A stretch of DNA of 64,000 bases from IMG/VR virus record IMGVR_UViG_3300032167_005013; one strand, given 5' to 3'. The position numbers were made by a program, and so were the translations under genes. This stretch comes from a virus. Taxonomy: Duplodnaviria; Heunggongvirae; Uroviricota; Caudoviricetes. Below, in pieces: positions 1 to 62,877 of this stretch; the first letter of the stretch is position 1; every line of letters begins with the position of its first letter. The notes under the pieces are model-generated. The model worked only from the letters and a program-made list of their open reading frames with translations, had not been told where the DNA came from and searched no databases.

Positions 1-150
1 AGGAGAATGGTTGGGGTGATGGTATTCCCGCGAACCATAGGTGAGGAGACTAACGTATTTCCCTGCGGATAACAGATGCTGCAGGTCCTCATGAGACCTA
101 CCTTAACAATTGTGATGGAACCCCCATCCTACTGAAATGGTCTCACTAAT

Positions 151-225
151 GCGAGTGTAGCTCAGTTGGCAGAGCGTCAGTTTCCCAAACTGAAGGTTTC
201 GCGGGTTCGAGTCCCGTCTCTCGCT
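151..225 (+). tRNA. tRNA-Gly(CCC)
   Basis: Cloverleaf; anticodon arm tcagt-ttcccaa-actga; T loop TTCGAGT; U73. Confidence 0.9.
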
Positions 226-233
226 CAAATAAC

Positions 234-318
234 GGCGACATGGTGTAATGGTAGCCACGCAGGATTTAAGTCCCTGTGGCCCGAAGGGGCCGTGTCGGTT
301 CGAGTCCGACTGTCGCTA
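234..318 (+). tRNA. tRNA-Leu(TAA)
   Basis: ggcgaca/tgtcgct acceptor; loop tttaagt; long variable arm. Confidence 0.88.
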
Positions 319-424
319 CAAAAAATTACTTAATATAGGTACTCTTTTGAGTACATTATTATAACTTTTTATTTTAACGTACTATTTATTATTACAAATA
401 AATTAAACTACATTAATAAAAAAT

Positions 425-514
425 ATGAGAAATCTCCAACATACAAATTATTCGTATCCCAAATCTCTCAATTTTGGGCTCGATTATCGTATAGTGGAGG
501 ATTTAGACGAATAG
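425..514 (+). CDS. Putative leader peptide MRNLQHTNYSYPKSLNFGLDYRIVEDLDE (29 aa)
   Basis: ATG at 425 after an A-rich leader; TAG-TAA double stop; overlaps alternative-pairing segments of the downstream terminator. Confidence 0.6.
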   Translation: MRNLQHTNYSYPKSLNFGLDYRIVEDLDE

Positions 515-549
515 TAAATTTTTAGATTTATACTCATATTCATGATGCT

Positions 550-590
550 ATCCTCCGGTTTAATAAAAAACTTGGAGGATTTTTTATTTT
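550..590 (+). terminator. Intrinsic terminator / attenuator hairpin upstream of the tRNA run
   Basis: atcctcc...ggaggat stem followed by a T tract; its 3' arm TGGAGGATTT is repeated at 495-504. Confidence 0.7.
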
Positions 591-605
591 GGCACGGTAT
601 TTGTA
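590..605 (+). promoter_or_regulatory. sigma54-type -24/-12 motif
   Basis: TGGCACGGTATTTGTA about 23 nt upstream of tRNA-His. Confidence 0.6.
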
Positions 606-628
606 TATATGTATTTTGAAAATATATA

Positions 629-701
629 GAGGATGTAGTTCAGTTGGTAGAATATCACATTGTGGCTGTGAGGGCCATGGGTTCAAATCCCATCATTCTC
701 C
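629..701 (+). tRNA. tRNA-His(GTG), no genomic G-1
   Basis: tcaca-ttgtggc-tgtga arm; C73; base at -1 (628) is A. Confidence 0.9.
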
Positions 702-716
702 CAAATTAAAATAAAT

Positions 717-811
717 GGAGGCGTACCCAAGTGCTTGAAGGGGACGGACTTGAAATCCGTTAGGACGGTAACCACTCCGTCGCGTGGGTTGGAATCCCAC
801 CGCCTCCTCCA
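717..811 (+). tRNA. tRNA-Ser(TGA)
   Basis: acgga-cttgaaa-tccgt; long variable arm; encoded CCA; T loop TTGGAAT. Confidence 0.88.
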
Positions 812-846
812 ATACAGTTGTAAGTAATCTGCGAAACTTTCAAAAA

Positions 847-928
847 CGGAATGTGATGGAACTGGTAGACATGCGACACTTAGGATGTCGTGCCTCCGTG
901 CGTAAGGGTTCGAGTCCCTTCATTCCGA
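847..928 (+). tRNA. tRNA-Leu(TAG)
   Basis: cgaca-cttagga-tgtcg; cggaatg/cattccg acceptor. Confidence 0.9.
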
Positions 929-934
929 CAATAT

Positions 935-1010
935 ATGGTAATAGCTCAGTTGACAGAGCGCTTGGTTTGGGACCAAGAGGCCGCAGGTTTGAGCCCTGCT
1001 TACCATACCA
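935..1010 (+). tRNA. tRNA-Pro(TGG)
   Basis: cttgg-tttggga-ccaag; encoded CCA. Confidence 0.85.
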
Positions 1011-1014
1011 AAAT

Positions 1015-1090
1015 GAGGTTGTAGCTCAGGTGGTAGAGCGGGAGCCTGAAGAGCTCCGCGTCGGTGGTTCAACTCCATCCAACCTCACCA
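1015..1090 (+). tRNA. tRNA-Phe(GAA)
   Basis: ggagc-ctgaaga-gctcc; encoded CCA. Confidence 0.9.
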
Positions 1091-1165
1091 AAATAAAAAT
1101 ATTTTTGGTATTGTTAAAAACAATCACTATATTTGCAAATGAAAAGAAAACGGTAAACAAAATAT

Positions 1166-1241
1166 TCCCAAGTAGCTCAGTAGGTTTTAGAGCAACGGTC
1201 TGTTAAACCGTGGGTCGGTGGTTCGAATCCACCCTTGGGAG
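1166..1241 (+). tRNA. tRNA-Asn(GTT)
   Basis: acggt-ctgttaa-accgt; tcccaag/cttggga; G73. Confidence 0.9.
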
Positions 1242-1310
1242 CGAGAAGAGGTTTTTCTTATTTTAGACTTCTGGTACAAAAAGAAAATAAGATGGTGCTC
1301 CAAGCAATAT

Positions 1311-1393
1311 GCCGAAATGGGACAGTGGTTGACTCCACCTGATTTGTAATCAGGCTCCGCAAGGACTCGTCAGTTCGAATCTGACTTTCGGCT
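1311..1393 (+). tRNA. tRNA-Thr(TGT) with long variable arm
   Basis: gccgaaa/tttcggc acceptor; cctga-tttgtaa-tcagg; 14-nt variable region with tcc-gcaa-gga hairpin. Confidence 0.75.
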
Positions 1394-1395
1394 CA

Positions 1396-1560
1396 AAAAC
1401 AAAACCTCAAGTTGGGGTGCCTCATAACATAGTCGTTCAAAATGGAGAACGGCCAAAGGGCAAGAATATAGATAGAGAGGCCTCACGTTCAAGCGGATAA
1501 GGCGTTTAACTTATCAACCTCTCACAAACGTGACTACGGAAATCGTTTGGGTTTTGTTTT
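1396..1560 (+). ncRNA. Structured RNA of unknown family
   Basis: 11-bp terminal stem aaaacaaaacc/ggttttgtttt plus several internal helices. Confidence 0.45.
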
Positions 1561-1565
1561 ATATT

Positions 1566-1727
1566 GGGTCAGCGCCGCAGTTGGAGAGGCGGGACAGACT
1601 GTAATAACAGAGTAAACTGTCACAAATCGCTGGTTGGAAATTGGTAGGAAGTATCGAGGTATCGTACACCTCTCCAATCACAATCTGTTGTCGTAAGGCT
1701 GAGTAGGTTCGATTCCTACCTGACCCA
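1566..1727 (+). tRNA. tRNA-Tyr(GTA) with a 78-nt anticodon-loop insert (1604-1681 or 1605-1682)
   Basis: gggtcag/ctgaccc acceptor; acaga-ctgta...aa-tctgt; Tyr-type variable arm and T arm intact. Confidence 0.85.
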
Positions 1728-1801
1728 CTATAAAATTAATAATGTAAAATATAGTATTTTTTAGTTCGATATACTATTTATATATAGAAAAACTAAAAAA
1801 T

Positions 1802-2587
1802 ATGATTACAAATGAAAGAAAAATATTTTACATAAATTTAATTAAAGATTCTTTTTCTTTACGAGAAGTTTGTTTAAAAGCGGGAATAGTTGTTACTACA
1901 GGCAATTATGATACTTTAAAAAGACTAATTAAAGAGGAGAATATTGATATAAGTCATTTTAAAAGACAAAATGTAAATAATCAAACTCATCATGAAATTG
2001 ATTATTTTTTACAAAAAGGAAGTAACATTGGGTCGTTTAGATTAAAAAATAAACTTTTTGATAATGGTTTAAAAGAACGTAAATGCGAATGTTGTGGAGG
2101 AACGGAATGGATGGGTAAACCTATTAATCTTCAACTACACCATATTAATGGAGATAATAAAGATAATAGATTGGAGAATCTTCAAATACTTTGCCCAAAT
2201 TGCCATTCTTATACAGAGAATTACTGCGGGAAAAACCAAAAAATCAATATAAAAGAAAAAGAAAGAATAATAAAAAAACGGACATATATAGATGTAAAAC
2301 TTTTACAAGAATGTTTAAATGAAACAAATGATTTAAATATTATTGGTGAAAAACTTAATAGAACACCAAAAACAATTAAAAAATATATAAAACAATATAA
2401 TTTAAAAATAGAAACAAAAGAAAAAAAACCAAAATATGATGTTAATTTAATGTTTCAATTAATGAAAAAATATAAAAATTATACCAAGGTTGGTGAAAAA
2501 ATGGGGATTAGTGATAATGCTGTGAAAAAACGTTTTATCAAACTTGGTTATCCATCTAATATTAAAGATTTATTAAATTCAATATAA
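1802..2587 (+). CDS. HNH homing-type endonuclease with HTH-like C-terminus
   Basis: CECC...LQLHHINGDNKDNRLENLQILCPNCH motif. Confidence 0.85.
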   Translation: MITNERKIFYINLIKDSFSLREVCLKAGIVVTTGNYDTLKRLIKEENIDISHFKRQNVNNQTHHEIDYFLQKGSNIGSFRLKNKLFDNGLKERKCECCGGTEWMGKPINLQLHHINGDNKDNRLENLQILCPNCHSYTENYCGKNQKINIKEKERIIKKRTYIDVKLLQECLNETNDLNIIGEKLNRTPKTIKKYIKQYNLKIETKEKKPKYDVNLMFQLMKKYKNYTKVGEKMGISDNAVKKRFIKLGYPSNIKDLLNSI

Positions 2588-2598
2588 TATATGGATTC

Positions 2599-2672
2599 GC
2601 TCTCAAAGCATTAAAGTGATGCACGAAACTTTTAATTTCGGGAAGAAGGGGCGGTACCTTCTGGGAGCACCA
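2599..2672 (+). tRNA. tRNA-Lys(TTT) with atypical D and T loops
   Basis: gctctca/tgggagc acceptor plus ACCA; cgaaa-cttttaa-tttcg; T loop GGCGGTA. Confidence 0.75.
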
Positions 2673-2824
2673 AATTTTTAACATAAAAAGCATATCTAAT
2701 AGGAAAAATTGCCTCCTTAAGATATGAAACCATATACGGAAGTTGCGTTTGGCAGACAATAGGACCAACAACCTATCCAAAGTACACGGATACGGAAAGA
2801 CATTATGGAATGTTAAATAAATAT

Positions 2825-2907
2825 AGGAATGTAACTCAGTTGATAGAGGCTTCGCTGAGATAATATCAAAGGCCAAGAGGACGGTGGTTTGAGCCCATCC
2901 ATTCCTA
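2825..2907 (+). ncRNA. tRNA-like RNA (Pro-like body) with an 18-nt anticodon loop
   Basis: aggaatg/cattcct acceptor; T arm ggtgg-tttgagc-ccatc; anticodon not assignable. Confidence 0.55.
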
Positions 2908-2914
2908 CAAATTA

Positions 2915-3048
2915 TGTTAGTTTATTGCAGTATATTGGAGACTGCAGCGAATGTTATTTCGTCTTCGTTTGAGCAACAGACCGTTAGGGTGCACACAATG
3001 ACAACGGTGTTGCGAGAAGTATGGAGGTTCAATTCCTTCAACTATCAC
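2915..3048 (+). ncRNA. tRNA-like RNA with extended D stem and very large variable domain
   Basis: tgttagtt/aactatca acceptor; ttgcagt/actgcag stem; T arm ggagg-ttcaatt-ccttc. Confidence 0.55.
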
Positions 3049-3056
3049 TAAGGTAT

Positions 3057-3203
3057 TGTGGCGTGGTGTAACGGTAGCACTAAGGATTTTTTAAGGCGTG
3101 GTTTCCGTAATAAACTATTGGTACGGGTCTTATGAAGTTAAGTAGAGCAAAACTACCCTGTATCGCGGTTCCTTCAGTCAGAGTTCGAATCTCTGCGCCA
3201 CAA
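3057..3203 (+). tRNA. tRNA-Gln(TTG) with a 76-nt insert inside the anticodon (3091-3166)
   Basis: tgtggcg/cgccaca acceptor; aagga-tttt[insert]ggt-tcctt; cagag-ttcgaat-ctctg T arm. Confidence 0.75.
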
Positions 3204-3338
3204 CTAAAATGAAATAAATTTGATAATATCAATATTTATATACTATATTTGCAACATAAAGGGATGGCTATATATGATGAATGATAGGAATAGCCTACAA
3301 CATATATGACACCTCCCTATTTTTAAAAAGAAAAATTA

Positions 3339-3421
3339 AGGAAACATACAGCAAAGTTTTTGGATAATAAAATTAATTAGACTTTAGTTTTTAGATAGTT
3401 CAATTCTGTCACTGTTTTCTG
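3339..3421 (+). ncRNA. Small RNA with ACAGCAA motif and a T-arm-like hairpin
   Basis: aggaaaca/tgttttct terminal stem; gatag-ttcaatt-ctgtc. Confidence 0.45.
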
Positions 3422-3477
3422 TCTTAATATAACCGTGGTTGCAGTCAAATCGGGATATAAATAGCGACTGCATATAT

Positions 3478-3550
3478 TGCGGCGTGTAGCAGTGGTAGCT
3501 AAGCGGTCTCATAAGCCGACGGTCGGTGGTTCGAATCCTCCCGCTCGCAA
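3478..3550 (+). tRNA. tRNA-Met(CAT), initiator-like body
   Basis: ctcataa loop; body resembles fMet; bulged acceptor stem. Confidence 0.75.
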
Positions 3551-3564
3551 CGAGTCTACTCACA

Positions 3565-3703
3565 GAGATGTACTCTTGGTTGGTCGCACTACCGTAAATG
3601 CGATACAATTGATGTTGAACAATGGTCTTGGAATAACCTGCAGCAAGTACAAGGCAACAACACTGGTAGTTAACGTGACATTAGCCGGTGAAGAGTATAT
3701 TTC
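3565..3703 (+). ncRNA. Structured RNA of unknown family
   Basis: gagatgtactctt/aagagtatatttc terminal stem; more GC-rich than its flanks. Confidence 0.35.
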
Positions 3704-3817
3704 AACATTTGTTGAATATTTTAATTTTTATTTATATTAACATTCAGTATCAGGACGGGTGTGAACCTCTCCTGATATTTTTTTCTATACACTATGGCAC
3801 GATTTTTGCTATCTCTA

Positions 3818-3864
3818 TTATTCGAAAATACTTTTCTCATTATTCGAAAATACTTTTCTCATTA
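3818..3864. repeat. 22-bp direct tandem repeat, 2 copies
   Basis: ttattcgaaaatacttttctca occurs twice in an AT-rich noncoding gap. Confidence 0.8.
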
Positions 3865-4242
3865 TGATTGTTTAACCTTCATATATTATAGTGGCAGTAA
3901 GCAGAAAAACGGTTTCTTAATACTGAAGTATAGTCTCCATTGTACCTATTTATCACCATTTAGAATTATTCTAATTAACAATCTATAAGCAAAAACATAT
4001 AAATAAATTATAATTTAGCACAACATTACATGGAGAAAAAATAAAAATTGTAAGCAAAATACTCGATAATGCTTACAATTTATTAAAAATGCGTATGTAA
4101 TATAGTGTATATTTCTATATGTGTGGAAAAATTAAAAAAATTTTGAAAAAATCCGGGGAAAATTATTACAAAGAACAGTTTCTTTTGTTATTTTCAATCA
4201 ACTTCCACAAACGGATAATTCGTTAAAATCTTAGTAAGATAA

Positions 4243-5280
4243 TTAATATGTTATAAGTTTCTCTACTTGTTCTATTGTAAGGTTTATCAAAATATTATAA
4301 ACATGTTCTTCCATTTTTCCACGATATTCTTCAGTTCTTTTAACGATTTGTTTTCTTTTACAATCAAGGTAAACTTTATAAGCTTCTTCTTCAGTATCAA
4401 ATTCATTTTTTTTACCTTCTAAAAAAGAGTCAATAAAATTTCTTTCCACATTCAACTTCCATTTACCTGTTTCTGAGTTATAAGTTGTTCCTGTATAGTA
4501 CCCGTTTTTAAGTTGTTGTTTTGGCCTTCTTGCAAAGATAATTCCAATCCTATTAGGAATAAACACAATATTATCAACAGTATAATTATTAATATTGTCA
4601 TCAAGATTTAAGATTAAATCATTAACAACCAAGATTTCATTGTAGGTATCTTGTGCTTTTTGATATTTTTCACAAAAGTCTTCTTGTTTTATATCAAATG
4701 TTTTATTTTTCAAATAGGCATAATTATTAAGGTTAGATTTAGCCCTGCTCATATATGATTTATAAGCGTTTTTTGCTGCTTTGTTATATTTGCCATTGAT
4801 TTTTGTTGTTTTTATTGGGGTCATTGTATTATACCCTTCTTGTAATGTTTTAAACACATCACAATAAAATGCTTCTCGTTCATCAAGAAGTTCTATAGGA
4901 CATATCTCCATTATATTATAATTCCATTTCCATGGGTCAACGTCCTTTCTTGCTTTTTCAATTTTACTTCCCGCATATGGATTATTTCCGAGAAATTGTT
5001 TGTATCTATTTCTCAAATTCTCGGTTTTTCCTATATATTTTTTATAATCATCTTCGGGGTTCACAAGCATGTATATTCCTGATGTCTCAGGTATTGTATT
5101 AATGATAGATTCTTTATAAGACTTGATACTACTTTCATTTATGATGTTTTTCTTTTTCTTCAACTCATTTTTCAATACTTTATTTTCTTCAGCATAAATC
5201 AAATTTTCATGTATTAATGCATTTTCTTTATCAGAAAATTCAGTACCATCTATAGTTTTATATTTTAAAATTATTTCCAT
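4243..5280 (-). CDS. GIY-YIG endonuclease
   Basis: SGIYMLVN...KKYIGKTENLRNRY...ERE...GYN; likely start MEIILK at 5280. Confidence 0.8.
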   Translation of the reverse strand: MEIILKYKTIDGTEFSDKENALIHENLIYAEENKVLKNELKKKKNIINESSIKSYKESIINTIPETSGIYMLVNPEDDYKKYIGKTENLRNRYKQFLGNNPYAGSKIEKARKDVDPWKWNYNIMEICPIELLDEREAFYCDVFKTLQEGYNTMTPIKTTKINGKYNKAAKNAYKSYMSRAKSNLNNYAYLKNKTFDIKQEDFCEKYQKAQDTYNEILVVNDLILNLDDNINNYTVDNIVFIPNRIGIIFARRPKQQLKNGYYTGTTYNSETGKWKLNVERNFIDSFLEGKKNEFDTEEEAYKVYLDCKRKQIVKRTEEYRGKMEEHVYNILINLTIEQVEKLITY

Positions 5281-8648: not shown

Positions 8649-9283
8649 ATGTTTTCACGTGGGATTTTAGCCCTTTTTCTTCCACTTTATTCCATTATTT
8701 TCCACGTTATAAACGTAAACGCTGTAAATGTTTGGTTTACAGCGTTTTAATTATAATATATTATATACCAAATATTTAAAGAAAAGGCATTCATAACTCT
8801 CTAAAAATAAGTGTATTAGGGAGGTGAAGAAAATTATTCTAAAAAAGGTTTATTTTGGAGGATAATTTTCTAATAATAATACATTCCCTTACCTTTTTGT
8901 ATGAAACGGTAATCTACACATGGTCTATCATTAAGTATTTTATATCTATCGGGGAACCAGTTGTGGGCGTCTTTTTTTATGTACTTAAAGAGTACTCTGC
9001 AGTTACAAGAGAAAGTGCTTGCCCAACCGCTTGGATGTATTGGTGCCTCGGTTGCCAAAGTGCATTTGGATAAGTTTGTCCTGAATCTTATTTTTCTGTT
9101 ATTATGCATATTAGAAATATGTTGGCGGTGAATTTCTCCATAGTAATTGCGTGGTCCCCCCATCTTCAAATAGTGAGTTAAGCCACTCATCATAACCACT
9201 ATGAGGGCTTTCGGGCCCTTTTACCACATGTTTATAAAACCCATTATAATTTGGGTCGAAATCATTTTTATCGTAAATCATTT

Positions 9284-9691
9284 TTAATCTCCAAACAATT
9301 CTGCGGTCCATTTTCTCCCACTGTATTCAAACCAATGGTCAGGATGGAAATACCAATTTCCGGTAAAGAGCCAATGAACGGGCCTTATGATTAAAAGAGT
9401 AATAAGCATCCAAATGAAGAAGAATGGCATTGTCAGTCTCATTATAGGTTTTGTTTTGATTTTCTCCGGTTTCCAAGAATATGCATGGAAAGGCATCCCC
9501 ATGTCTCCCCAATTACCGGTATTGTCTCCCCAATAATATCTTAGTGCTCGTTTCTGTTCATCGGAAAGATGATAGATTTCATCATCATATTCTTCAAAGA
9601 ATTTTTCAATTTCCTTGCAAACATCAAGTCCTGATAATCTTCTATATTTTTTAAAAAATAAACTCATGATTTTAATTATTTTATGTTGCAA
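9284..9691 (-). CDS. Hypothetical membrane protein
   Basis: One hydrophobic segment near the C-terminus. Confidence 0.6.
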   Translation of the reverse strand: MQHKIIKIMSLFFKKYRRLSGLDVCKEIEKFFEEYDDEIYHLSDEQKRALRYYWGDNTGNWGDMGMPFHAYSWKPEKIKTKPIMRLTMPFFFIWMLITLLIIRPVHWLFTGNWYFHPDHWFEYSGRKWTAELFGD

Positions 9692-11293: not shown

Positions 11294-11647
11294 GTGAAAT
11301 ATATCATTTCCATATTGTTTTTATTCATTCCCTTTACAGCCTTATCTCAGGAAAAGGAAGTCATTTCATATCACTTTGAATATGGCTTTGGATTATCTGA
11401 TTTTTATTCTTATCCACAACGTTTTGAACAGGATAAGATTATGCCATTTCCAATATTGGATGAATATATGGTGGGAATCAAGTTCAAGAAAAAAGAATTT
11501 GAAATCACGCCGATGATTGGAATTGTTGAACAGGAGTGGTATGACAGAAAAATGGTTTATAAACCCACTGTGGGGACTGTCATTAAAAAGAAAAACCTCC
11601 ATTTCAAAATATCGAATGGGGGTTTGTCTATTGTTATTTTATTTTAA
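11294..11647 (+). CDS. Small secreted or outer-membrane-like protein
   Basis: Signal-peptide-like N-terminus (KYIISILFLFIPFTALSQ), beta-strand pattern, C-terminal Phe; GTG start inferred. Confidence 0.45.
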   Translation: MKYIISILFLFIPFTALSQEKEVISYHFEYGFGLSDFYSYPQRFEQDKIMPFPILDEYMVGIKFKKKEFEITPMIGIVEQEWYDRKMVYKPTVGTVIKKKNLHFKISNGGLSIVILF

Positions 11648-11882
11648 AAAGAGTCTGTTTTTCAAACAGACTCCTCACAAAAACATCTACTCGACTTTCT
11701 TATTACCTGCAATGGCATAGCCGATAATTGCAAATACTCCGAAAAATGCACCAAGAATTGCTCCAAGCGTGGTATCACGTCCCCTCTTCTCAGCCATGCG
11801 ATAGCATAGATAGCCCCAAAGGACAGCAAACAAAAGCGTAATTAAAAAATCCATGTCATTTTATATTTAAAAGAATTATTTT

Positions 11883-12482: not shown

Positions 12483-14033
12483 TTATTCCTCATCATCAGC
12501 ATACCCCTCAAGCATGTCCCCCGTGATGACACCCTTATCCATATCCTTCTTTTCCTGTTCAAAATAGAGGTCACTCTTAATCTTGAACGCCTCCTGAATA
12601 GGGTCATTTTCAATTCTGATGACAAGTCCTTCTCTCCAAACCTTATTCTTGCAAAGAGGCTCCTTAAGGTCCATACCGAACTTCTCCGAGTCAGTCTTCA
12701 TCCTGCGAACAAAGTTCTCATGCCAATGTTCCTCAGTTGAAAGGTCGGGGTAGATATCCTTTGCAGGGCCATGATACATCAGCTGCAGAGGGAAAATCTT
12801 ATCTTCAAGGTCAGGGTAAGTCTCAATCAGCCACTTGGTATATCCAATTACATCTGTGATTTCAAAATCCTCATACTTACCGGTTGCGGAGTTGAACTCA
12901 GTCACACGATAAATCATGAGCTTGTTCTCGCCCTTCTTACAACCATAGTCATATACCTTACCACCACGGGTAATGATGCCTGTTTCTGAATTAGGTACAT
13001 ATCCAAGAATTTCTCCGTAGATAATCATTCCATGGTCAACCTTACCCTTAAGAATCTCATACCACTGTGGGTAAACTGCATCAAGGCCTGTCGGATAATT
13101 GTCACCGGTCTTACCAACCTTTGAAGTACTGCTCTTAGGAGCCTCGACATAAGCATTTCCTGAACGAATGACATTTCGTGAACTGCAGACATCCTCCCAA
13201 TCAATATCCCATGTTCTCCACTTATCAGGCATCAACATGAATGCCTTAAGTATTAACTTATTAAGGAAATTGAAACGAGTCTTTGGGAGACGTGGGGTTC
13301 TCGTCTGAATATTACCGAAGATTATTGATGTTCCGTCCAACTTAAGAGAGATATCAACGACATCCTCAGGCTTGATTTTCCAAGCATTCCTCTCAAGGCT
13401 CTGTGTGTCGTAGTGAAACTGCCACTGTCCCTCGACAATCCTGTCAATCTTGGCAATGGTCTTCTTATGTCTCTTATAATGCTTTCCCTTTCCTGCTGAG
13501 TGCTTTCTCTCCTTGATTCGAGGAACATATGGCTTTGAGAAGAGGACACCATCAACGGTATCAAATTCAGTCCCAATATAATCCTCAAGATTCAACTTCT
13601 CAACACCCGGAAATGCGAGTGCCATTGCTCTCTGAGAGAAGAGGAAACCAAATGAAGGCACTCCGCCAAGACGAATCATCTTCACACGCCCATACTTATT
13701 GAAGAATCCTACCTTCCTCTTGGCTTCGTCCTTCTTATCCTCGCTCATCAGTTTTTCAACCTCCTCGTAGTTGACATTAAGTTGTCTTTCCCCAATTTCA
13801 AAAAGGTTGTTCTTTGAAAGGAAATCTGTGTTAAGTTCTGATTCGTTTGCTGCATAGAAAAGGATATCACCCTCGTGGCATTCGTCCTTTCTGACAACCA
13901 TTGTAAAGTTCTCAACAACAGTTACTCCGATTGAATCATATCCCGGAATATCCTTAACCTCTCCAATCTTCACGATTGTGGTACAATATTCCTGCTTAAA
14001 CTTTTCTGATTTTGTAAAAATGTTCTTTGCCAT
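12483..14033 (-). CDS. ATP-dependent RNA ligase (Rnl2/DRB0094-like) with N-terminal OB-like domain
   Basis: Nucleotidyltransferase motifs KLDGTS, IYGEI, REGLVIR, FKIKS. Confidence 0.8.
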   Translation of the reverse strand: MAKNIFTKSEKFKQEYCTTIVKIGEVKDIPGYDSIGVTVVENFTMVVRKDECHEGDILFYAANESELNTDFLSKNNLFEIGERQLNVNYEEVEKLMSEDKKDEAKRKVGFFNKYGRVKMIRLGGVPSFGFLFSQRAMALAFPGVEKLNLEDYIGTEFDTVDGVLFSKPYVPRIKERKHSAGKGKHYKRHKKTIAKIDRIVEGQWQFHYDTQSLERNAWKIKPEDVVDISLKLDGTSIIFGNIQTRTPRLPKTRFNFLNKLILKAFMLMPDKWRTWDIDWEDVCSSRNVIRSGNAYVEAPKSSTSKVGKTGDNYPTGLDAVYPQWYEILKGKVDHGMIIYGEILGYVPNSETGIITRGGKVYDYGCKKGENKLMIYRVTEFNSATGKYEDFEITDVIGYTKWLIETYPDLEDKIFPLQLMYHGPAKDIYPDLSTEEHWHENFVRRMKTDSEKFGMDLKEPLCKNKVWREGLVIRIENDPIQEAFKIKSDLYFEQEKKDMDKGVITGDMLEGYADDEE

Positions 14034-30499: not shown

Positions 30500-30670
30500 T
30501 AAAGATGTAGTGTCAAGCACCGTATGTAAAATTCTAAGAAAATCTACCTTTCCTATATTTTACTTCTTATTTCAACGAACCACTGCTTTTTAGAAGGCAT
30601 TGCCTCGGTCATCCACAGTTAGGTTCTCCATAAGCGTATATTCGGTGCTACGGACACCTATTATTCTTTC
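30500..30670 (-). ncRNA. Putative TnpB omegaRNA scaffold plus flanking guide
   Basis: Overlaps the tnpB 3' end and the right end; expected location from TnpB biology; boundaries approximate. Confidence 0.5.
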
Positions 30671-31789
30671 TCCCTCTAATAAGATATTCATCGCTGCATT
30701 TATATCCCTGTCATGATGTTCGCCACATTGTGGACATGTCCATTCCCTGTCACTTAACTTCAAATCATGTTTCTTATATCCACAAACTGAACATGTTTTA
30801 CTGCTTGGATAGAATCTATCAACAAATATTACTTGTTTTCCGTTATTGAATGCTTTATCAACAAGTATTGATTTAAATCTATAAAATCCTACTTCTTGTA
30901 TCGCTTTCGCTAACTTATGATTCTTTAACATTCCACTAACATTTAAGTCTTCCATGAAGATTACATCATAATATATAAGCAATTCATTTACTACACTATG
31001 AATATAATTCTCTTTCTGATTGTTTAACTTCTCAAATGCCTTTGCAAGTTTGATTCTTGCTTTATTTCTGTTATTAGAACCTTTTTGTTTCTTTGATAAT
31101 TGATGTTGGAGTTTTGCTATCTTCTGTTCTTGTAATTTATAGAAATGTTTATTTTCAAACACTTCACCATCACTTGTAATTACAAAATCTTTAACTCCTA
31201 AGTCAATACCAACATGTTCATCAGTTAATTTGAATTTAACAACTTCTTCATTTGGTAACTCAATTAAGATAGATAAGAAGAAATTACCACTCTTGGTTTT
31301 CGATAAGGTAGCACTTCTTATTCCATCACGATATTGTCTGAGTCTGTTGTGATTCAAATCAGAACATCTGAAACGAATATCTTTTAAAGGTTGTGTCAAC
31401 GTTATTTTTCTTGTTTCAAATGTATTCTTCTTTGAAATCGCTTCAAGTGGGAATAACGCTGACTGTTTATCTTTTTTACTTTTGAATTTTGGGAAACCAT
31501 TATGTTGTTTAAAGAACTTCTCATAAGCAGATAGCATCTGCCTTATTGACTGTTTCATTATCTTTGTGTTTTCTTCTTTCAACCATGAGTATTGTTCATC
31601 CTTCAATAGTTCATTATGAAAATACTTTGATAAATCAGTTAAACCTAATGATTTCTTATTTTCAGTATATTCTTGTTGTTTACGAGCAAGTGTTTGATTA
31701 TAAACAAAACGGTAACACCCCAATACTTTATTCAGTTTCAGTTCTTGCTCCTTATTTGGATATAATCTTATTTTAATTGCTCTTAACAT
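30590..31789 (-). CDS. tnpB: TnpB RNA-guided endonuclease
   Basis: KIRLYPN; GIDLG; EDL; SSKTCSVCG...CPQCG..HDRDINAA. Confidence 0.95.
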   Translation of the reverse strand: MLRAIKIRLYPNKEQELKLNKVLGCYRFVYNQTLARKQQEYTENKKSLGLTDLSKYFHNELLKDEQYSWLKEENTKIMKQSIRQMLSAYEKFFKQHNGFPKFKSKKDKQSALFPLEAISKKNTFETRKITLTQPLKDIRFRCSDLNHNRLRQYRDGIRSATLSKTKSGNFFLSILIELPNEEVVKFKLTDEHVGIDLGVKDFVITSDGEVFENKHFYKLQEQKIAKLQHQLSKKQKGSNNRNKARIKLAKAFEKLNNQKENYIHSVVNELLIYYDVIFMEDLNVSGMLKNHKLAKAIQEVGFYRFKSILVDKAFNNGKQVIFVDRFYPSSKTCSVCGYKKHDLKLSDREWTCPQCGEHHDRDINAAMNILLEGERIIGVRSTEYTLMENLTVDDRGNAF

Positions 31790-31986
31790 TATTCTTTTTA
31801 TATTTCTCCTAAAATTATTTTTCTTTGTATTTCGTAGTTAACTCGATGATTTCAGTTTTTTGGGATAATCTATCACTAAGTTCTTTACTTATCTCGTGTA
31901 ACATTTTATTAATATATGGTTCATCATTAATGTATCCGTTTTTCTTTAAATCATCATACATTTCCTTTGTGAACTCTGCCATATCG

Positions 31987-32604
31987 CTATTCCCCCATAT
32001 TCTTTTTCTTTCTTCTTTCAGCACTTCGCTTACCATAGAATTTACCTGAGAAACTTGCCAATAAAGACATCATGTCAGCAGCAAGTTCTTCCTCATTTGA
32101 TACATCTAAACCATTTATAACAATAACCTCACATCCATAACTTTCAAACATTTTCTTTATGAATTTGAATTGGAATCGTGTAAGTCTGTCTTTATGTTCA
32201 ATAACCAATTTATTAACCTTTCCTTGTATAATCAAATCAGTTAATCTGATGAATCCACTTCTATTATCATTTAAACCACTACCAACATCTTTAATGATAT
32301 GCGTAACTAAAAGTCCTTTCTTAGCACAATACTCTGATAATCTTTGTGATTGTCTATCCAAATCTCCTTTTTGCTTTTGTTCATGAGAACTAACCCTTGC
32401 ATATGTTGCACAAACAATAGGTTTGGCTTCAGTTTCTTTCACTTCTTTACCAAGAAATTCATCAAGTGCATCAGTATCATATCTTCTATGTCCACCAGCA
32501 GTTTCAAGAGGTTTCAGTTTATTTGCTTTATCCCACTTTCTTAGAGTATCTTGAGATACATTGAGATATTGTGCTGCTTCTCCAATTTTCAGTAATCTTC
32601 CCAT
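31987..32604 (-). CDS. tnpA: IS607 serine recombinase transposase
   Basis: MerR-like HTH (TAGGHRRY); YARVSS; DVGSG; DRLTRF. Confidence 0.95.
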   Translation of the reverse strand: MGRLLKIGEAAQYLNVSQDTLRKWDKANKLKPLETAGGHRRYDTDALDEFLGKEVKETEAKPIVCATYARVSSHEQKQKGDLDRQSQRLSEYCAKKGLLVTHIIKDVGSGLNDNRSGFIRLTDLIIQGKVNKLVIEHKDRLTRFQFKFIKKMFESYGCEVIVINGLDVSNEEELAADMMSLLASFSGKFYGKRSAERRKKKNMGE

Positions 32605-34035: not shown

Positions 34036-34794
34036 TTAAAACTTGAATTTTCTTAACTGCGATTTATGGACGAAAACACGTTCAACCCTAACATTCTGTG
34101 CAACACCCATCTTAGTTGTGCCCATACCATCTTTTCTTGCTTTCTCCCATATACAGACAAAATCAGAAGGTGCTGAATATTCCGACACCATTATCTTATG
34201 CCCCTTATCACACATTCCACGGCACCACTCCCAAAACAGTTCATTATCAAACCCGTTCTTATTGTATCCTTTAGTTGATGCATAAGGCGGGTCACAATAG
34301 ATAAAAGAATTCTTAGGGTATTCCAATGTTCTATAATCACCATGCACAAATGTACAACTATCAAGGCCAATGAAACTGTTTATATGTTTCAAAAGTCCTC
34401 GTCGTGCCTCAGCAATATGGTCCTCATTTCTGTTAGGATTAAAATGTGCATATCCATTCCACCATCCACATCCGTTTGAACAGGCATTTCCCACGTAACC
34501 AAGGAGGGCTGAATCATATTTCCCACTATTGGTTAAACAATCTTCGCGCATTGCCTTGTATTCGGTTTCAGTAACTCTCTCAGGTATTTTAAATGTATTG
34601 TTTTGAATTGCTTTCCACATGGCAATTACATGTGGATTAATATCCATTGCAATTTTATTGTCGTGGTTTATTACCGCAAATGAATTCATTCCACCGCCAA
34701 ACGGCTCAATATAAGCCTGACACTCATCAAGATTTCTCTCAATGAGTGCTTTTAAGTTTTTCATCAAACCTCTTTTACTTCCTTGATATCTCAT
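34036..34794 (-). CDS. DNA adenine methyltransferase (D12 class)
   Basis: YQGSK; EPFGGG; YCDPPY. Confidence 0.85.
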   Translation of the reverse strand: MRYQGSKRGLMKNLKALIERNLDECQAYIEPFGGGMNSFAVINHDNKIAMDINPHVIAMWKAIQNNTFKIPERVTETEYKAMREDCLTNSGKYDSALLGYVGNACSNGCGWWNGYAHFNPNRNEDHIAEARRGLLKHINSFIGLDSCTFVHGDYRTLEYPKNSFIYCDPPYASTKGYNKNGFDNELFWEWCRGMCDKGHKIMVSEYSAPSDFVCIWEKARKDGMGTTKMGVAQNVRVERVFVHKSQLRKFKF

Positions 34795-35588
34795 TAAATC
34801 TGTGGGATTATATTGCGGTCCTTAAAAAACGTTCTGTTTGTTTCATCATTAAGCGGAACAGCCGGGAATACCTCAGGGTTATGTCTTGTATATACATCAC
34901 CATTATTGTTGGTAAATTGGGTTTCAACCCTATAGATAAATCTACCGAACTTCCATCTATCAGGATACTTATCCCAATCCTCACCGTTATATTCCTTAAG
35001 TTTTTCAATCTGTTGGTCAACAAGCAATCCCATAAGTTCCTTGTGAGGAAAAAATGTCTGTGCTGTCTGCGCCTTAGAATTCCTGATACAGTCATTCTGT
35101 CTATACAACAACCATGCAACTACATCATTATAAGTTGGAACATTCCACGCCTTGCAATCAAATTCATAAAGGCCAATCTTCTCAGCAATGACCTGAGAAC
35201 CTTCAATACTTGTCCTCAATTCATACTGCATCATCAGATTATTAAACTTTGCAGTTGCCATAGATGCAACAATAGACAATATCTTGGTAAGCCTATATCC
35301 AAAAAATGAGTCTGTTGTTGGCGTTTCGAAATCAGTAATAACAAGAGTGATTTCATCTGACTGTGTATATGCAAATTTACAACCCTGAACATTCTTTACC
35401 AAGTATTTTGCTGTTTCATCCATCATATCAATGAAATCATCATCAAAAGGCTTCGCAAACTTCTTCTTGATTTTGGAAGAAAAACTTCTTCCATCAAGCA
35501 TTACCAACACATAAGAGTTAGGCATAAGCCTATAATCCGTAAGACTACGAAAATACTCACATTTCTCTTTTAAACTATCAAACTGCAT
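34794..35588 (-). CDS. thg1: tRNA-His guanylyltransferase-like (Thg1/TLP) 3'-5' polymerase
   Basis: MLDGRSFS...KPFD...YTQSDEI...FDC...RQND. Confidence 0.9.
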   Translation of the reverse strand: MQFDSLKEKCEYFRSLTDYRLMPNSYVLVMLDGRSFSSKIKKKFAKPFDDDFIDMMDETAKYLVKNVQGCKFAYTQSDEITLVITDFETPTTDSFFGYRLTKILSIVASMATAKFNNLMMQYELRTSIEGSQVIAEKIGLYEFDCKAWNVPTYNDVVAWLLYRQNDCIRNSKAQTAQTFFPHKELMGLLVDQQIEKLKEYNGEDWDKYPDRWKFGRFIYRVETQFTNNNGDVYTRHNPEVFPAVPLNDETNRTFFKDRNIIPQI

Positions 35589-61716: not shown

Positions 61717-62877
61717 TTAATTCTGTTTTACAACCCAAAGGCTATGATATTCATTATGTTCAGGAAATTCAAAATTCTGAACCATATTGTAAAATACATT
61801 CTCAGGTATCTGTCCCTTACGTCTCTTGATATTATCCTTAAACGTAGGTGCCTCAATATACCAATAGTTCCAACGGATTTTCTTTCCTCCTAAGAAACCT
61901 TTCAATTCCTTTCTTCTCTTGGCAGATAGATTAATGTTATTCAATATAACAGGACGATTATTTTCTATTGCCTCAAGAAGCCTTTCATTAAAAATCTTGG
62001 TAACTTTATTCTCCTGTTTGTTTGTTCCAACAATCTTTTCATCTGCAGAACAATAACCCAATTCCACCCTGATATCATCTCTTGACAACACCACAGGGTT
62101 ATCCATCTTATGAATGAGTGTATTCTCAATGAAAGTATTCTTGCCTGACCCAGGAAGCCCAATCATCACATTGACCTCAACGGCATCGTCAGCAAATTTA
62201 GGAAGACTACCACTGCAACCGTAAGGACTTTCACCAATCTTGAACATATTCAGCCATGAAATGTTGTTCAATTCTTCACCGATGATTAGGAATCTTTCAA
62301 GAATCTTCTTGTCTTCCTCTTTAGTAGAACAACTTGGTTTCTGAATTGCACCCTCAAGGTCACACATCTTCAGCCTGTATATATCATAATAAGGGAGAGT
62401 TTTTGTAATTTTATCAACAACATCCCTTGGCTTCTTGGCTTTTTCGAAGAAGAGAGGCTCCATATGCCACTTAACCATATGAACAATATACTCACGGTCA
62501 TAAAGAGGCCAATCCCACAGCATTTCACGTGCAAGTTTTGAACCTACATTTTCATGACCATAAGAGTGCCAATTACCATCTTTTTCTCCCTTGAAAGTCG
62601 TCTTAGGCTTTCCAACATCATGGAAAAGTGCTGAGAGCATAAAAAGTCTCTTCTCGTGAAGGTTCTTCTCAGTATCTTCTTCCATAAATCCCAAAGCATG
62701 CTTGCACACAAGACGGGTATGTTCCAATGTATTTCCCTCACTATGCCAACGAGGATTCTGCATAGTATTCTCCATATCTCTAAAATGTGGAAGTTTCAAA
62801 ATGAAATCCCAATTCAAGTTCAAAGTATTATCAATAAAAAAATCTTCAAGTACCATATTATTCTTTTCCAAATACAT
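61717..62877 (-). CDS. HD phosphohydrolase + P-loop polynucleotide kinase fusion (HD-Pnk-like)
   Basis: WHSEG...H...FHDVGK...GHE; GLPGSGKN; LSRDDIR. Confidence 0.8.
   Translation of the reverse strand: MYLEKNNMVLEDFFIDNTLNLNWDFILKLPHFRDMENTMQNPRWHSEGNTLEHTRLVCKHALGFMEEDTEKNLHEKRLFMLSALFHDVGKPKTTFKGEKDGNWHSYGHENVGSKLAREMLWDWPLYDREYIVHMVKWHMEPLFFEKAKKPRDVVDKITKTLPYYDIYRLKMCDLEGAIQKPSCSTKEEDKKILERFLIIGEELNNISWLNMFKIGESPYGCSGSLPKFADDAVEVNVMIGLPGSGKNTFIENTLIHKMDNPVVLSRDDIRVELGYCSADEKIVGTNKQENKVTKIFNERLLEAIENNRPVILNNINLSAKRRKELKGFLGGKKIRWNYWYIEAPTFKDNIKRRKGQIPENVFYNMVQNFEFPEHNEYHSLWVVKQN

Follow-up and report, generated by a model that had tools for sequence, protein, structure and literature searches.

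A tRNA-Gln(UUG) gene near the start of the phage DNA analysed here is split inside its anticodon by a 76-bp insert, and the orthologous genes of related phages are uninterrupted. The DNA, a stretch of 64,000 nt from a member of the Caudoviricetes (IMG/VR record IMGVR_UViG_3300032167_005013) that is referred to below as the window, starts with a phage tRNA array. We regard it as a working-type tRNA-Gln(UUG) gene with a mobile insert between bases 35 and 36, and judge the chances to be about even that the insert is cut out by proteins.

Identity, boundaries and alleles of the split tRNA-Gln gene

The gene is composed of two exons and the insert:

3057..3090, plus strand: tRNA-Gln exon 1, with the acceptor 5' strand, the D arm, the anticodon stem 5' strand and loop bases 32-35 (TTTT)
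3091..3166, plus strand: 76-bp insert (intron), missing from the orthologous tRNA-Gln genes of related phages
3167..3203, plus strand: tRNA-Gln exon 2, with G36, loop bases 37-38, the anticodon stem 3' strand, the T arm, the acceptor 3' strand and the discriminator A

The default tRNA finder made no call at 3057-3203. The Rfam tRNA model in sensitive mode matched this interval over its whole length (47.5 bits, E = 3e-8; model positions 1-71), and ARAGORN with introns allowed predicted a tRNA with a 76-nt intron there, choosing the TCG register. When joined, the exons form 21 of 21 standard cloverleaf pairs. The acceptor stem is TGTGGCG/CGCCACA with U1-A72, the anticodon stem is AAGGA (3082-3086)/TCCTT (3170-3174) with 83 nt between its strands, and the T arm is CAGAG-TTCGAAT-CTCTG; exon 2 does not encode CCA.

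The boundaries of the insert were defined by comparison with L196, a related array that is 98% identical to the window over the block of tRNA-Tyr and HNH genes. BLAST of L196 against the window gave one piece that ends at 3090 and a next piece that starts at 3167, and the two are contiguous in L196. This break cannot slide because the flanking bases differ between the window and L196, which is an exact empty site for the 76-bp insert. C3166 precedes GGT and therefore only the removal of 3091-3166 gives the loop TTTTGGT, which places the junction between U35 and G36. Both the empty-site alignment and the intron-less orthologues thus agree with an earlier, sequence-only reading of this DNA, according to which a tRNA-Gln is split inside the anticodon and excision of these 76 nt restores that loop.

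Positional orthologues in L192, L196, L199 and L185 are uninterrupted tRNA-Gln(UUG) genes with the loop TTTTGGT. The downstream flank AAATAAATTTGATAATATC is common to the window and all four of these contigs, and the upstream spacer CACTAAGGTAT is common to the window, L192 and L196, the contigs that reach that far. At one and the same tRNA, the insert is present in some related genomes and absent from others.

The wider comparison also identifies the gene as tRNA-Gln. Its 5' half alone matches annotated phage tRNA-Gln genes, and an 18-nt word from its D arm occurs in about 105 phage tRNAs in IMG/VR, 58 of which are tRNA-Gln and none of which is tRNA-Arg(TCG). TTTTGGT is the commonest loop among the tRNA-Gln genes sharing this word (34 of 58). 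Two further IMG/VR contigs, L205 and L206, contain a tRNA-Gln without an insert, the central 39 nt of which are the same as in the spliced product of the window gene; the expected spliced-junction sequence of that product is GGATTTTGGTTCC. The tRNA finder, Rfam and ARAGORN found no second tRNA-Gln within the window.

The reading of the gene by ARAGORN as tRNA-Arg(TCG) was rejected. tRNA-Arg identity requires A at D-loop position 20, which is U here; Arg(TCG) is missing among the D-arm relatives; and the orthologues are tRNA-Gln. The alternative TCG and GCG registers raised in the sequence-only reading are arithmetically possible, but comparisons with orthologues favour neither of them.

Relative to the intron-less L196 allele, the exons of the window gene are 72% identical, and the nine base pairs that differ between the alleles have changed on both sides in every case (9/9). 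Judged by this pattern of substitutions, the exons look functional; it fits a gene kept under tRNA constraint and is also compatible with a recent insertion.

Three other contigs of this phage, from three samples, have the 76-bp insert and its allele without any difference; they were read from a set of 24 contigs, up to about 350 kb long, in which the neighbouring HNH protein is encoded in identical form. The sole natural variant of the Gln insert is found in L198, a contig that ends inside the insert and covers its last 39 nt and exon 2. It has a single change, G3165A. Exon-anchored and junction-anchored pattern scans of IMG/VR gave no match, and a metagenome pattern scan for the split gene gave only chance matches in coding DNA. 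Likewise, IMG/VR, JGI metagenomes and GTDB genomes yielded no homologue of the 5' leader of the insert or of the remainder behind it (one chance match in the leader scan and none in the scan for the remainder), and an ORF near the split tRNA-Gln has no relative in IMG/VR.

Several other RNA elements were noted in these arrays. At 2599-2672 of the window lies a gene resembling tRNA-Lys(UUU), which encodes CCA, has an unusual T loop (GGCGGTA) and is kept in L196; default finders missed it and ARAGORN called it only at a lowered threshold. The approximately 165 nt between tRNA-Thr and tRNA-Tyr (1395-1560), which are closed by AAAACAAAACC...GGGTTTTGTTTT, are also kept in L196 and may be a structured RNA, with no match in Rfam. 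In L192, an HDV-like ribozyme (11619-11687; Rfam RF02682, 47.6 bits, gathering score 44) adjoins the 3' end of the intron-less tRNA-Gln without a gap. It resembles ribozymes that are reported to trim the 3' trailers of phage tRNAs. No equivalent was found after the split tRNA-Gln in the window.

Architecture of the insert and its relation to Lak-type introns

The Gln insert can be divided into a leader and a tRNA-like 3' domain, and a second insert lies upstream in the tRNA-Tyr gene of the same array:

3091..3118, plus strand: 5' leader of the Gln insert, with a weak candidate hairpin GTGGTTT (3098-3104)/AAACTAT (3112-3118)
3119..3127, plus strand: 5' strand of an acceptor-like helix, TGGTACGGG, which pairs with 3157-3165 (architecture script)
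3128..3141, plus strand: 14-nt linker with GAAGT at 3134-3138, a position that recurs in the Tyr insert and in L058:1205-1281
3142..3156, plus strand: T-arm-like hairpin GTAG-AGCAAAA-CTAC (4 bp, 7-nt loop), which stacks straight on the acceptor-like helix
3157..3166, plus strand: 3' strand of the acceptor-like helix, CCTGTATCG, and the one-base tail C3166; exon 2 starts at the next base
1566..1728, plus strand: tRNA-Tyr(GTA) with a 78-nt insert (1604-1681; ARAGORN -i), which has a 13-bp stack

The acceptor-like helix has 9 bp, three of them wobble pairs, and together with the 4-bp helix it makes one 13-bp stack that is capped by a 7-nt loop and followed by a 1-nt tail, the layout of a tRNA acceptor stem and T arm. 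The change in L198 converts the outer U.G pair of this helix into U-A. Among shuffled inserts, a stack that had 13 bp or more and a 7-nt loop and ended at most 3 nt from the end of the insert was seen in 0.2% of cases for Gln and in 0.03% for Tyr; the 3' architecture that the two inserts share is therefore beyond chance.

The literal motifs listed in the sequence-only reading are present in both inserts. The Gln insert begins with TTAA, contains TAAACT at 3112-3117 and ends with ATCGC, and the corresponding motifs of the Tyr insert are ATAA, TAAACT and ATCAC. The 3' domains are likewise as described there, with closing stems TGGTACGGG/CCTGTATCG (Gln) and TGGTTGGA/TCCAATCA (Tyr), GAAGT in the internal loops and short hairpins. 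The claim of a shared architecture holds for the 3' domains, given the shuffles, but does not extend to the 5' thirds, which differ in structure, and models built from the Tyr insert miss the Gln insert.

We also considered predicted folding energies. The RNAfold energy of the leader hairpin (-2.3 to -2.6 kcal/mol) is no better than those of shuffles, and that of the whole Gln insert is at shuffle level (z -0.13). At minimum energy, the whole insert is predicted to adopt an alternative fold in which the leader pairs with the T-like region, whereas the isolated 3' domain folds into the acceptor-like and T-like helices. According to these predictions, the whole insert has no thermodynamic preference for a tRNA-like fold. 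A guide-like pairing of the leader with exon 1 was rejected as well, the common ACA/ACAG being better explained as a conserved motif.

Inserts with these shared dimensions span five phage lineages. The architecture script found 13 bp and a 0-3-nt tail in the window Tyr insert, in L196:678-753, in L192:9193-9307, in L193, in two introns of L058 and in the tRNA-Tyr and tRNA-Thr introns of the megaphage Lak-A1, and the Lak-A1 tRNA-Phe intron has the same layout by eye. L058 is an unrelated IMG/VR phage, and both of its introns with the stack are in tRNA-Tyr genes. The Tyr insert and L058:1205-1281 have GAAGT at the corresponding place in the linker, whereas the Lak and L196 members lack it; what the Gln insert and L196:678-753 have in common is the loop AGCRAAA and the 4+9 split of the stack.

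The L196 member interrupts a tRNA of the sister array (642-791) by 75-76 nt and has the same 9+4 stack, with the loop AGCGAAA, as the Gln insert. Its junction would also be 35/36 if the family rule that the intron begins with TACAG holds. ARAGORN called this tRNA Asn, while the loop CTGATAA would make it Ile(GAT).

The tRNA-like part behind the leader, or cargo, varies in size among members, from as little as 46 nt up to complete tRNAs of class I and class II, and it is a full-size tRNA in Lak Thr, L192 and L193. L193:106-320 and L192:9158-9345 have the same host tRNA and the same leader, CACAGAGTAATTCACTGAAACGAATTG, with different cargoes: one contig has a class I tRNA-like RNA and the other a class II RNA with a long variable arm. 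From such comparisons, the cargo appears to be modular and exchangeable.

Although the sequence-only reading took these inserts for an uncharacterised class of mini-introns, their build matches that of the 'enigmatic' tRNA introns of Lak megaphages, whose sequences have been listed (Devoto 2019, Nat Microbiol, PMC6784885, Table S6, Fig. 4). Like the window inserts, the Lak introns are short (79-114 nt), lie in the anticodon loops of phage tRNAs, have no Rfam match and are present or absent between relatives. The Tyr insert and the Lak-A1 tRNA-Phe intron start with the same 16 nt, TAACAGAGTAAACTGT. The Gln insert shares with the Lak introns a leader followed by a tRNA-like stack of acceptor and T arm that ends 1-2 nt before exon 2.

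The four introns listed for Lak A1 and A2 have a common plan, consisting of W-UA, a hairpin with an ARUAAA loop, an A-rich linker, the tRNA-like part, and C or CT before exon 2. The stems of their leader hairpins differ between introns yet stay complementary. The Gln insert fits this plan in its 3' two-thirds and at its boundaries (WTAA at the start, helix and C at the end), but its leader has neither the UA-stem-ARUAAA-stem hairpin nor the A-rich linker. Accordingly, a hairpin scan found the ARUAAA hairpin in the Tyr insert, Lak Phe and Lak Thr and not in the Gln insert. Moreover, the Gln T-like stem has 4 bp and the loop AGCAAAA, compared with TTCGAAT-like loops in Lak, and the Gln junction is at 35/36 rather than at 36/37. 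The window phage also belongs to a different lineage from Lak (34% versus 26% G+C), and its reading frames are contiguous under table 11.

Covariance models built from the Tyr insert (R1), its 3' domain (R2) and the L196 3' domain (R3) gave no match to 3091-3166 at E<=10, a weak test of membership in that each model is derived from one sequence; R2 did find L058:1205-1252 (25.8 bits). Membership of the Gln insert is therefore a matter of architecture. Because its 5' third differs, the models miss it and its fold energy is unremarkable, we regard it on this comparison as a divergent variant of the Lak-type tRNA mini-introns.

TAACAGAGTAAACTGT followed by WWAAATCA, which makes up the leader in the Tyr and Lak Phe introns, is also found between genes in AT-rich phages (L001-L044 in IMG/VR, e.g. 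L025:3393-4307). There are one to three such copies per genome, located after terminator-like hairpins and about 45 nt before small ORFs or structured RNAs, and they may be processing sites, promoters or mobile modules. A tRNA-like stack follows 6 of 37 intergenic copies of the 16-mer, compared with 9% of shuffles, which is not above chance. It is unlikely that the 16-mer is a general phage promoter, given that the stems co-vary between members and that genomes have only one to three copies.

Neighbouring HNH genes and mobility

The split tRNA-Tyr gene is adjoined by a candidate mobility gene:

1802..2587, plus strand: HNH homing-endonuclease gene immediately after the split tRNA-Tyr, with matches to Pfam HNH_3/HNH below the curated cut-offs

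Its protein is 35% identical to an HNH protein encoded in L198 (E 5e-44), and the two are paralogues. In L198 the split tRNA-Gln is followed by the HNH gene, then by the final 19 nt of the allele that lacks the intron and then by the normal downstream flank. The HNH frame (8723-9529, minus strand) ends inside this 19-nt tRNA-Gln remnant, its stop being the TAA just after it. Given both the HNH gene and this remnant in L198, we conclude that the split allele came in a cassette that overwrote the resident gene.

In contrast to L198, the window has no HNH gene adjoining its split tRNA-Gln. A possible cause is a deletion between two AACTAAAA repeats, which are present in L198. As far as these loci can be compared, the split allele probably spreads at the DNA level together with a neighbouring free-standing HNH gene.

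Free-standing endonucleases are known from tRNA clusters (T4 SegB), as is collaborative homing of an endonuclease with an endonuclease-less intron (PMC2988022). The L198 and Tyr loci resemble such collaborative homing in that a free-standing HNH gene lies directly beside the split gene and, in L198, a remnant of the replaced allele is left. The differences are that the Gln insert is not a ribozyme and that the window Gln gene stands without an adjoining endonuclease gene.

Elsewhere in the window, a TnpB-like gene (30590-32604, minus strand; OrfB_IS605 and Cas12f1-like TNB domains) adjoins a serine resolvase with a MerR-type HTH, forming an IS607-like pair.

Possible routes of removal and their significance

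The sequence-only reading invoked sealing by a phage ligase, for which the window does encode a candidate, along with other enzymes that act on RNA ends:

12483..14033, minus strand: candidate ATP-dependent RNA ligase (PHROG 968 'RNA ligase', E 3.7e-31, full length; KxDG motif; PF21189)
61717..62877, minus strand: fusion of an HD phosphoesterase and a P-loop kinase, a candidate RNA end-healing enzyme (Pfam HD, residues 50-154; AAA_33, residues 237-372)
34794-35588, minus strand: Thg1-like enzyme (Pfam E 3e-26, PHROG E 2e-58)

A metallophosphoesterase is encoded as well. Thg1 family members add nucleotides to the 5' ends of tRNAs. The 13-bp stack of the introns has the 8+5 geometry of tRNA-His, which may be a coincidence.

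We put it at roughly an even chance that the insert is removed by proteins rather than by self-cleavage and that the phage ligase seals the exons. In such a route, the tRNA-like part would expose two sites, the 3' boundary and its own 5' end, to nucleases of the RNase Z and RNase P types, and an additional cutting or trimming step would take the leader off at the 5' boundary. The cloverleaf would then hold the two tRNA halves together until the phage RNA ligase sealed them; where the ends required healing, the HD-kinase fusion would supply it. The 3'-OH and 5'-phosphate ends that RNase P and RNase Z produce can be joined by an ATP-dependent RNA ligase.

The tRNA shape is the only constant feature across members, which points to two enzymes, RNase P for the 5' end of the stack and RNase Z for its 3' end, and the full-size tRNA cargoes in L192, L193 and Lak Thr argue that this shape matters. 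Nevertheless, two points count against the proposed route. RNase P and RNase Z cuts alone would leave the 28-nt leader on exon 1, and an RNase Z cut after the 13th stacked base (a ruler of 12 bp plus discriminator) would be one base short of the junction.

The pair of an RNA ligase and a kinase/phosphoesterase in the window recalls the repair of RNA breaks by T4 Pnkp and Rnl1, which act against PrrC, and by HD-Pnk of Runella. These systems repair nuclease damage in mature tRNA, whereas for the window enzymes a use in splicing is no more than a proposal.

A reading that we think rather unlikely, though it is the best of the alternatives, is that the insert is never removed and that the phage uses the host tRNA-Gln; the insert would then be an inactive passenger of homing traffic or a decoy that resists anticodon nucleases. 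We know of no splicing machinery in bacteria for such inserts, the split allele is linked to an HNH cassette in L198, the fold energy of the insert is unremarkable, and the window has other odd tRNA-like RNAs without usable anticodon loops, all of which would suit a gene that is not spliced. However, such a gene would not be expected to keep all of its exon pairs or to show nine fully compensated differences, and the insert is identical in phage contigs from three samples. That unrelated members keep the 13-bp dimensions with different sequences further suggests selection on the RNA and not on the DNA only, and a second tRNA-Gln was not found in the window.

The insert might instead be a nested small-RNA gene. 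The mini-tRNA, released by RNase P and RNase Z, would then be the useful product, tRNA-Gln would be its landing site, and rejoining of the exons would be secondary or absent. We consider this unlikely. It would account for the complete tRNA-like genes that form the cargo in Lak Thr, L192 and L193, for the exchange of cargoes behind one leader and for the leader-type motifs that precede other structured RNAs and small genes in AT-rich phages. The 48-nt Gln cargo, however, has no anticodon arm, no CCA and no evident function of its own, and the boundaries restore the anticodon loop exactly in every member examined, which a landing site would not need.

Self-cleavage was one of the two possibilities left open by the sequence-only reading, the other being enzymatic splicing, and the former looks unlikely: the tRNA-like part has been swapped for unrelated whole tRNAs behind the same leader (L192 versus L193), so that there is therefore no constant catalytic core. 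A new small self-cleaving or self-splicing ribozyme is accordingly very improbable in our estimation. Conserved unpaired bases (GAAGT, the WTAA start and the final C) and alternative pairings in the insert could be seen as signs of one, and the end-healing candidate encoded in the window would suit 2',3'-cyclic phosphate and 5'-OH ends. But no Rfam ribozyme or intron family (including hammerhead, twister, pistol, hatchet and HDV-like) was found in 1-4500 at E<=10, in a search that works on such DNA, as its detection of the HDV-like ribozyme in L192 indicates, and GAAGT is missing from some of the members.

The same search bears on known introns. Group I introns are self-splicing ribozymes, typically of 200 nt or more. 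With its 76 nt and no group I core, and with no Rfam intron family in that region, the insert is indeed too short for group I or group II, as had been claimed. Group I introns nonetheless occupy anticodon loops of bacterial and phage tRNAs, together with homing endonucleases (review PMC3984707), and they are like the Gln insert in being mobile, in this location, in having to leave at the RNA level and in their association with homing endonucleases.

Archaeal and eukaryal tRNA introns have a bulge-helix-bulge that is cut by the EndA/Sen endonuclease, with RtcB or Trl1 as the ligase. They resemble the proposed Gln route in their small size and in protein-dependent removal from the anticodon region followed by ligation. 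We give hardly any credence to an intron of this type, despite the similar size and anticodon-loop location and a possible 3-bp GCG/CGC pairing beside the 3' boundary: inspection of the sequence allows no 3-4-3 motif to be drawn, as the sequence-only reading had also concluded, the junction is 35/36 and not 37/38, the L198 change G3165A would break the GCG/CGC pairing while improving the tRNA-like helix, and no tRNA-intron endonuclease family (EndA) occurs among the 71 ORFs of the window, which is from a bacterial virus.

The only route by which bacteria and their viruses are known to remove tRNA introns is self-splicing by group I ribozymes. Inserts of 76-115 nt without a ribozyme core, which sit in well-kept tRNA genes of several giant-phage lineages, would imply either that a protein-based splicing route exists in bacterial cells or that phages tolerate broken tRNA genes for some other reason. 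To this, the Gln case adds boundaries that are proved exactly by an empty site, a junction that falls within the anticodon and so suggests cut sites set by the intron rather than by the tRNA, a tRNA-like ruler of a constant 13 bp across members, and a direct link to homing-endonuclease cassettes. It also gives a defined substrate and candidate enzymes with which removal can be tested.

We tentatively suggest, as a possibility that we ourselves regard with some doubt, that phages infecting hosts of the Bacteroidota type have a third kind of tRNA splicing, in which a mini-tRNA within the intron recruits RNase P and RNase Z of the cell to excise it, a phage ligase reseals the anticodon loop, and the intron shields the gene from a neighbouring homing endonuclease by which the split allele is spread. 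If this were true, the geometry of the intron would set the splice sites, which would explain how a junction can lie inside the anticodon.
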